Origin: a virus
Lineage: Duplodnaviria > Heunggongvirae > Uroviricota > Caudoviricetes
Length of the DNA: 9,804 bases
IMG/VR virus record: IMGVR_UViG_2579778652_000001
Location: 1 to 9,804 of that record
Direction: 5' to 3' (one strand)
A program made the translations under genes and the position numbers. Of this stretch, positions 9,050-9,804 are shown piece after piece. Each line of letters starts with the position of its first letter. The stretch's first letter is position 1. The notes beneath the pieces were generated by a model. It was not told the origin of the DNA. It saw only the letters and a list, made by a program, of their open reading frames with translations, and made no database searches.

Positions 9050-9066
9050 CGGAAAGCCACGGATGG

Positions 9067-9360
9067 TTAGCTGCTGTCTTTTTTATATAGCTCTTTGAGC
9101 GTATCAAAGACAATTTTCTTAACCATATCGGATTGTTGTTCTGCCATACGCTCTGCATCGTCAATGTAAACTGATGCAGAGCTTTGTTTAGCCAATGATT
9201 CTTCAATCGCTGCAATTATCTCTGAGTTCAGCGACCTGTTATTCATCTTCGCACGCTGTTTAATTTTCGCGTGGAGTTCATGCGGAAGTCTCAAGTGAAA
9301 CTGCGCCTCGTCGTATTTGCTGTACATCCTTGATGCCTCACCAGTTGGGTGGAATGGCAT
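9067..9360 (-). CDS. mnt: Mnt-like ribbon-helix-helix transcriptional repressor (Arc/MetJ superfamily), 97 aa from the first ATG, or 86 aa from the internal ATG at 9327
   Basis: C-terminal half DDAERMAEQQSDMVKKIVFDTLKELYKKDSS is nearly identical in pattern to P22 Mnt (NDAERLADEQSELVKKMVFDTLKDLYKK). The RHH core FHLRLPHELHAKIKQRAKMNNRSLNSEIIAAIEESL aligns with Mnt FNFRMPMEVREKLKFRAEANGRSMNSELLQIVQDAL. Both candidate starts have a plausible SD (AGG before 9360; GAGG before 9327). Confidence 0.85.
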   Translation of the reverse strand: MPFHPTGEASRMYSKYDEAQFHLRLPHELHAKIKQRAKMNNRSLNSEIIAAIEESLAKQSSASVYIDDAERMAEQQSDMVKKIVFDTLKELYKKDSS

Positions 9361-9448
9361 CGTAACCTACTGGATAAATACTCAATAGTACCATTTCGGT
9401 ATGCAATCACATCATGGTTGCATCATATCATTCGTCTGGAGTAATGAA
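9361..9448. promoter_or_regulatory. Divergent intergenic control region between the mnt-like gene and the tailspike gene; candidate operator and promoters
   Basis: Inverted repeat ATGCAA (9401-9406) N11 TTGCAT (9418-9423), so a TTGCAT -35-like hexamer reads outward on each strand. Direct repeats CATCAT at 9410-9415 and 9421-9426. Candidate -10 TATCAT at 9426-9431 on + and GAGTAT (complement of 9378-9383) on -. GGAG SD at 9438-9441, 7 nt before the tailspike ATG. Confidence 0.35.
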
Positions 9449-9804
9449 ATGTCAGATATCACCGCAAACTTAGTGGTAGGGATGCCTGCGCAGCTTTTCA
9501 CGCTGGCACGCTCATTTAAAGCAAATGCCAACGGTAAAATCTATCTTGGGCTACCAGATACCGATCCTACAATCCCAGCGAATCAAATCCCTGTTTATAT
9601 TGAAAGTGAAACTGGAGATCTGATTCCAACTGCTCAGCCGATAGTCATTAACGCGGGTGGGTATCCTGTTTACAACGGGCAGATATCAAAGTTCGTTACT
9701 GTGCAGAATTACAGCATGGCTGTTTACGACGCCTATGGATCGCAGCAGTTCTACTTCCCTGACATTGCAAAATACGACCCAGATCAGTTAAGGCAACAGC
9801 TTGA
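9449..9804 (+). CDS. 9: Tailspike protein, N-terminal head-binding domain (first 118 codons; continues beyond the window)
   Basis: [113 protein letters not shown] aligns along its length with the P22 gp9 N-terminal domain as I recall it ([56 protein letters not shown]...KYDPDQ). No stop before the window end. Not in the ORF track because it is open-ended. Confidence 0.9.

Follow-up and report, generated by a model that had tools for sequence, protein, structure and literature searches.

The window, i.e., the whole stretch of DNA analyzed here (9.8 kb; 9,804 nucleotides), covers the distal part of the late operon of a P22/Sf6-like podovirus of the genus Lederbergvirus, an E. coli phage. As assigned with Pfam, the late genes follow in the order C-terminal part of the P22 coat protein, gp4, gp10, Sf6-type tail-needle knob, DUF2824 (in the gp14 position), gp7, gp20, the 911-aa SLT protein and tailspike. 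The SLT protein is a homolog of the product of gene 16, and its gene is the final late gene ahead of the moron slot. It faces mnt in a convergent orientation; mnt is encoded on the minus strand and is the sole ORF between the gene 16 homolog and the tailspike gene, with no accessory ORF. The stop codons of the two convergent genes are 17 bp apart, exactly as given in the preliminary description of this locus. No terminator was found between gene 16 and mnt, and the folding of this interval is unremarkable. In the 99.3% identical F1005 prophage (L004 18015-19733), the gene 16 homolog is annotated as a truncated pseudogene, the window copy being intact, and approximately 1 kb ahead of mnt carries no annotation.

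Table 1. Features of the mnt-tailspike junction and its surroundings (window coordinates; PWM, weight matrix score).
Feature	Position	Strand	Details
Gene-16-type ejection protein, 911 aa	6314-9049	+	N-terminal SLT transglycosylase domain (Pfam 5.7e-25); synteny with Sf101 gp13
mnt homolog, 86 aa	9067-9327	-	RHH DNA-binding half (QFHLRL strand) and Mnt tetramerization helix
mnt Shine-Dalgarno GAGG	9336-9339	-	read from sequence; 8 nt upstream of ATG 9327
Degenerate remnant at Pant position	9354-9382	+	ATGGCA-17-AATACT
Predicted Pmnt	9359-9385	-	-35 TTGAGT (9385-9380), 15-nt spacer, -10 TACGAT (9364-9359); PWM 7.5 bits
Predicted Mnt operator	9387-9403		AGTACCATTTCGGTATG, core GTACC-N5-GGTAT; slot homology with P22 Omnt
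Inverted repeat ATGCAATCA / TGGTTGCAT	9401-9423	+	arms 9401-9409 and 9415-9423, 8/9 complementary, 5-nt spacer
Second leftward promoter-like site	9427-9455	-	CTGACA-17-AATGAT; consensus scan, PWM 7.6 bits; type A leader only
Tailspike Shine-Dalgarno GGAG	9438-9441		
Tailspike gene, N-terminal head-binding domain	9449-9804, continues past window	+	Pfam Head_binding 1.8e-57

The Mnt homolog and its start codon

The longest version of the mnt ORF (9067-9360, minus strand, 97 aa) matches the Pfam families Arc (PF03869; 1e-14, residues 18-60, above the cut-off) and Repressor_Mnt (PF11423; ~3e-14, residues 68-93, profile positions 3-28 of 28), along with the Mnt structures 1mnt (N-terminal domain, residues 3-76; 5.5e-19) and 1qey (tetramerization domain; 2.3e-8). 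These profile and structure matches confirm the protein as a Mnt homolog: the RHH domain, the tetramerization helix, the location and the predicted promoter with its abutting operator are all those of the Mnt family. The location is syntenic with that in P22, L, Gally and Sf101. P22 Arc has the same RHH fold (Pfam Arc) and likewise derives its specificity from the N-terminal strand; however, it is a 53-aa dimer without the tetramerization helix that is present in the window protein, arc lies downstream of Pant, and the Arc structures match the window protein at only 1e-3. When P22 Arc, Ant and SieA, plus an Ant of a second type, were used as tblastn queries, the window yielded no match, in full support of the earlier description of a lone Mnt homolog that is not accompanied by arc, ant or sieA.

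The start codon of mnt is almost certainly the ATG at 9327, which yields a protein of 86 aa and leaves 121 bp to the tailspike gene, because GAGG is located 8 nt upstream, this block is conserved, the frame is closed in phage L, and PGAP calls an 86-aa Mnt in a 99.3% identical E. coli prophage (NZ_OY754353). Specifically, the block GAGGCATCA at the Shine-Dalgarno is kept in 9 of the 11 diverged representatives aligned, the block TGAGGCATCA is common to the window and phages L and Gally, and in both these phages a stop codon closes the frame upstream of the start. The ATG at 9360 (97 aa), on which the previously reported distance of 88 bp to the tailspike gene was based, falls inside the predicted -10 hexamer of Pmnt and is probably not used.

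In the HMMER alignment to 1mnt, the segment DDPHFNFRMP of Mnt is matched by DEAQFHLRLP of the window protein. The base-contact positions of Mnt are reportedly Arg2, His6, Asn8 and Arg10, according to Knight and Sauer's work, and we take the last three to be the counterparts of Arc Gln9, Asn11 and Arg13. Compared with P22 Mnt, Gln replaces His6, His replaces Asn8, Arg2 is lost and only Arg10 is retained, so that the substitution of base-reading residues, suggested from the first inspection of the locus, is evident.

Promoters, predicted operator and leader hairpin

The 80 IMG/VR loci that encode a Mnt at least 95% identical to the window protein represent three intergenic types, A (that of the window), B and C. 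All promoter scores below are given in bits of a simple sigma-70 weight matrix (PWM). The predicted Pmnt occupies the location of the annotated Pmnt of P22, which scores 13.1, and a leftward promoter is present at this position in every solitary type at 7.5-10.5 bits (8.0-10.5 in L, Gally, type B, VSe13, Buttiauxella, Serratia and B. gaviniae; 7.5 in type C and in the Escherichia sp. locus L209). Compared to type B, VSe13, L, Gally and P22, type A has a 2-nt deletion (window 9365-9379), which results in a Pmnt spacer of 15 nt (17 nt elsewhere); the short spacer predicts a weak Pmnt in type A. A transcript from the second leftward promoter-like site (Table 1) would traverse the operator ahead of mnt. 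In Buttiauxella and Serratia, there is a strong leftward promoter with the operator as its spacer, an arrangement that would give negative autoregulation.

In P22, Pant, Pmnt, Oarc and Omnt are all annotated, within the sequence ...TATATTctcaatAGGTCCACGGTGGACCT..., and the annotated features include the string "ctcaat AGGTCCACGGTGGACCT", the counterpart of which in the window is "ctcaat AGTACCATTTCGGTATG". The homologous stretches read ctcaatAGTACCATTTCGGTATG in the window, cacaatAAGACCACCGTGGTCTT in phage L, ctcaatAAGACCACAGTGGTCTC in Gally and aacaatCGTACCATTTAGGTATG in VSe13; in all four and in P22, the Pmnt -35 appears as its complement, "CAAT", with the 17-mer starting one base further along. 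We therefore predict that the operator of the window Mnt is the 17-mer AGTACCATTTCGGTATG, which lies in the P22 Omnt slot, one base from the -35 of Pmnt, the same as Omnt in P22. The alignment of the 11 diverged representatives contains four conserved blocks, namely, the Shine-Dalgarno, the -10 (TACGATGCC), the -35, and CAAT together with the 17-mer.

The 80 close loci share [AC]GTACC[AG]TTT[CT]GGTATG and diverge directly after it, and GTACC-N5-GGTA (9388-9402) is kept by all of them. More generally, virtually every locus with the QFHLRL strand contains the operator core, irrespective of the sequence that comes next. In some close relatives, GGTA is changed to TGTA, and among the closely related loci the operator varies at least as much as the sequence on either side, these sequences being too similar to reveal differential conservation. 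The window contains only one copy of the operator, an imperfect palindrome with 4 of 8 positions per arm and only half symmetric (left GTACCAT vs. right ATACCGA), whereas the Buttiauxella operator is the perfect palindrome GTACCATTTTGGTAC. When IMG/VR was scanned for GTACCNTTTNGGTATG, chance matches in unrelated viruses dominated, and the Mnt-linked matches (24 of 24) all adjoined a tailspike gene. Four unrelated environmental viral contigs (L096, L103, L141 and L157) each contain two exact matches to GTACCNTTTNGGTATG in the same orientation, separated by exactly 515 bp, which belong to some repeated element unrelated to Mnt.

The mnt gene is a mosaic, with a recombination joint between the two domains (window 9151, 9233-9403): VSe13 shares only the N-terminal half of mnt and the region up to 9403, and the E. 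coli prophages H29-H33 share only the C-terminal half. The operator 17-mer is therefore inherited along with the DNA-binding half of mnt, which is what one would expect if the repressor recognizes this site.

The inverted repeat between mnt and the tailspike gene, originally delimited as 9399-9428 and put forward as a potential operator, does exist (Table 1); as an operator, it has to be rejected given that only leader type A contains it, types B and C carry the same Mnt without it, and at least three other leaders accompany the same protein. A hairpin belonging to the type A tailspike leader is the more likely interpretation. In the plus-strand RNA, most variants keep the pairing, with 96.8% paired and one compensatory pair, and 35 of 500 shuffles reach the covariation score (14 variants). 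In each of the other leader types examined (those of L209, type B, L211 and L213), a hairpin is predicted 25-40 nt upstream of the tailspike ATG. The leader hairpin may be an RNA element of the tailspike leader, the covariation statistics being weak. The arms of the repeat in L209 are ATTCAAT/ATTGAAT, in which a double change has turned a G-C pair of the window into T-A. The F1005 prophage contains no further copy of the inverted repeat.

Mnt specificity classes and their gene neighborhoods

For 260 distinct IMG/VR loci retrieved with four queries (the window protein, a Salmonella variant, and the Mnt proteins of P22 and phage L), we tabulated the reading strand, the 17-mer that follows CAAT and the divergent neighbor. 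The operator class matches the reading-strand class throughout. The QFHLRL strand of the window protein (138 loci and one K variant) goes with the 17-mer GTACC-N5-GGTA, and the neighbor is the tailspike gene in 139 of 139 loci. The same neighbor is found in 63 of 63 loci of the phage L class (QFNLRL, 62 and one variant), the 17-mer of which is AAGACCACNGTGGTC. The P22 class (HFNFRM, 58 loci) is linked to AGGTCCACSGTGGACC, i.e., AGGTCCAC[GC]GTGGACC; here the neighbor is arc in 56 loci, and arc as the divergent neighbor is confined to this class. The matching of strand and operator classes supports the earlier expectation that the operator differs from that of P22.

A genome scan of GTDB species representatives, with a profile built from 5 sequences, detected the window class also in Escherichia sp., Buttiauxella and Serratia, with the same pairing of strand and operator, and the P22 class, with arc and ant, in Pluralibacter and Pectobacterium. 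In Serratia and B. gaviniae, mnt and its operator adjoin unrelated tail genes. Across the solitary classes, the repressor and the predicted operator are always located 45-75 bp upstream of a tail-spike or tail-fiber gene. Among complete E. coli genomes, 291 of 5426 (about 5%) contain matching DNA.

In one locus with a Salmonella-type moron (L145, 6419-10281), the ant gene has its own pair of RHH regulators, and the window-class mnt is still separate, beside the tailspike gene. The moron consists of an ORF with a SocA/Panacea domain and its partner ORF, two tandem RHH repressors, a P22-type Ant, a 270-aa ORF and, finally, the window-class mnt, so that two Mnt-like systems are found within one moron.

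P22 Mnt is about 49% identical to the window protein and has the same architecture, with the RHH domain and the tetramerization helix. The P22 mnt gene likewise occupies the interval from gene 16 to gene 9, is encoded on the opposite strand, and has a Pmnt whose -35 is separated by one base from a 17-bp operator. In P22, the strand is HFNFRM and the operator is GGTCCACGGTGGACC, compared with QFHLRL and GTACC-N5-GGTAT in the window. The surrounding immI region of P22 encompasses mnt, Pmnt/Pant, Omnt, arc, sar and ant, whereas the window lacks Pant, arc, sar, ant and sieA; P22 Mnt represses the strong divergent Pant that drives arc and ant, whereas the divergent neighbor in the window is the tailspike gene. 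Because arc and ant are missing from the window, Sf101 and the F1005 prophage, and the Pant hexamers are degenerate, the window, although it encodes a member of the Mnt family, does not contain an immI region of the P22 type.

Instead, mnt in the window is the sole immI gene and is directly divergent from the tailspike gene, the organization of a mnt-only ant moron. Such morons have been described for ST64T, ST104 and Para1 (Villafane et al., 2008; PMC2629481) and for phage L (Zaworski et al., 2020; PMC8022706), and the function of the solitary mnt in L, ST64T and ST104 was stated to be unknown (PMC2629481, PMC8022706). As in the window, the morons of these three phages contain a solitary mnt divergent from tailspike, without arc, ant and sieA; they differ in one extra ORF (orf62), the QFNLRL strand and the operator AAGACCACCGTGGTCTT, and their Mnt is about 48% identical to the window protein. 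The strand of this class shares QFNLR with Arc, and the L half-site contains AGA, like the TAGA boxes of Arc. Hence the layout is not unusual: a lone Mnt beside tailspike is the commonest layout in P22-like phages, and the textbook mnt-arc-ant arrangement of P22 is in the minority in our survey. Thus, the window reveals no new kind of system; its Mnt is a new specificity class within a known repressor family and a known, common layout.

The closest known relatives are gp14 of the complete phage Sf101 and its unannotated homolog in IME10, with an identical arrangement (gene 16, 17 bp, mnt, tailspike), 98-99% protein identity (99% for Sf101), the same operator and the same leader inverted repeat; the C-terminal part of the tailspike differs. 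Sf101 gp14 is not discussed as Mnt in the respective paper (PMC4159516) and is labeled "partition protein ATPase" or, in GenBank, "chromosome segregation ATPase". PHROG 795 and RefSeq likewise label the Mnt family, including mnt of P22 (NC_002371), "partition protein ATPase", a propagated mis-annotation. The window protein should be named Mnt, not "partition protein ATPase", and its start placed at 9327.

Possible roles of the solitary Mnt

We propose, with somewhat better than even confidence, that the window encodes a functional, autoregulated Mnt tetramer that acts at 9387-9403 beside its own promoter, and that tailspike is expressed from the late operon. Under this scenario, mnt would be transcribed leftward from the Pmnt homolog (9385-9359), and the product would form a tetramer, by analogy with P22 Mnt, and bind the 17-bp site that abuts its own -35 as in the Omnt/Pmnt pair of P22. 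Given that arc and ant are absent and the Pant hexamers are degenerate, the control region of mnt itself would be the only cis target left, and Mnt would autoregulate. The tailspike gene would be transcribed by late-operon read-through across the antisense mnt, not from a private Mnt-controlled promoter, and the module would represent the smallest possible version of a P22-like "ant moron". We infer the DNA binding by Mnt, the sign of the autoregulation and the physiological purpose. The weak Pmnt predicted for type A, the half symmetry of the operator, the TGTA variants of close relatives and the variability of the operator in the close set speak against this proposal. Of the three targets originally considered (its own promoter, an antirepressor elsewhere in the genome and a promoter feeding tailspike), the mnt promoter is the only one for which there is evidence, in the form of the predicted operator abutting the Pmnt -35.

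The last of these targets would be a rightward promoter within 9354-9448, that is, a Pant that now drives gene 9 under repression by Mnt. Deletion of arc and ant in a P22-like ancestor would bring Pant before gene 9, the remnant at the Pant position (Table 1) would initiate inside the operator, and the P22 ant region is thought to influence the late-operon transcription that reaches the tailspike gene, possibly with the involvement of Mnt and Arc (PMC2629481 and its ref. 76). However, this remnant, the best rightward candidate in the window, scores 5.7 bits compared to 15.5 for Pant, is not conserved in the sister leaders of type B, VSe13, L and Gally, and, as in all solitary types, the homologous position has lost the last T of the P22 Pant -10, which is invariant. 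No rightward promoter is conserved by position in the solitary types (best candidates at most 6.3 bits among types A-C, L, Gally, Buttiauxella and Serratia), and in Serratia a rho-independent terminator is located between the operator and the tail gene. We consider such direct control of tailspike improbable. Control by Mnt of an antirepressor or another gene elsewhere in the genome appears more improbable still, to the point of being hardly credible. The F1005 prophage does encode a KilAC-domain "antirepressor" in the nin region, but this gene overlaps ninF within the early-right operon and has no control region of its own. Searches with tblastn detected no Arc or Ant homologs in Sf101 or in the F1005 prophage, no antirepressor is annotated in Sf101, although it does carry a Rha-like regulator, and no second operator (at most 3 mismatches) was found beyond chance in Sf101 or in ~39 kb of the F1005 prophage. 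A candidate second site, GTACCAGATGTGTAC, with one mismatch to the core, is located 50 bp upstream of int in both Sf101 (18350-18364) and the F1005 prophage (L088 10618-10632); it was rejected because its spacer is wrong and its frequency is that of chance (~1.2 such sites expected in 40 kb).

The possibility that mnt is a decaying, functionless remnant of immI has been raised for phage L (PMC8022706). A stop codon at codon 5 of mnt in a Citrobacter sp. locus (L213, 3501-3755) is accompanied by a mutated operator core (TACT instead of TACC), such that gene and operator appear to decay together; one of the 30 distinct proteins of the close set contains an internal stop, and the half-site of the window operator and the promoter spacer look degraded. 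Nevertheless, almost all of several hundred loci retain an intact ORF, conservation of the operator core extends across genera, and between lineages the DNA-binding half evolves at dN/dS of 0.04-0.06 (about 0.05), with dS ranging from 0.3 to saturation (>2). This strong purifying selection argues against a mere remnant, which we accordingly view as an unlikely explanation. The same selection implies that autoregulation alone cannot explain everything, and that a further target or role must exist.

Our best guess is that the bound tetramer, together with convergent transcription from Pmnt, modulates late transcription into the tailspike gene. An explanation in which the tetramer, convergent Pmnt or both tune this transcription, or in which Mnt acts in trans on the junction of an incoming relative, rather than being left over from immI, is tentative and, on balance, not the one we favor, although it merits consideration. 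Apart from the purifying selection, it is compatible with the location of mnt and its operator directly before tailspike in every locus of the QFHLRL and QFNLRL classes, with the same placement beside unrelated tail genes in Serratia and B. gaviniae, and with its persistence in L145, where the moron has a separately regulated ant module; a similar idea has been floated for P22 (PMC2629481). Conversely, the adjacency might simply reflect a fixed moron slot combined with the loss of arc and ant, and the antiterminated late RNA polymerase may ignore roadblocks. Extending this line of thought to both solitary classes, one might speculate, again with rather low confidence, that they constitute a separately selected module, as opposed to leftovers of an antirepressor switch, which gates or tunes the transcription of tail genes or disables the junction of an incoming relative. 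If true, this module would control the supply of tailspike in P22-like phages at a point that has not been described before.

The survey adds two further Mnt specificity classes, each with its own operator, always solitary beside tailspike and under strong purifying selection. It also sharpens the small question raised for phage L, namely, the role of a lone Mnt, and offers a concrete 17-bp site. On the tailspike side of the junction, some prophages with the same Mnt have an HNH-endonuclease gene inserted after codon 5 of tailspike (ATGTCAGATATCACC / TACCATG...), as seen in L210 (2830-3369, in the mnt orientation), in E. coli H25 and in IMG/VR loci with a mnt-tailspike distance of 650-730; in these loci, the tailspike gene restarts further on.
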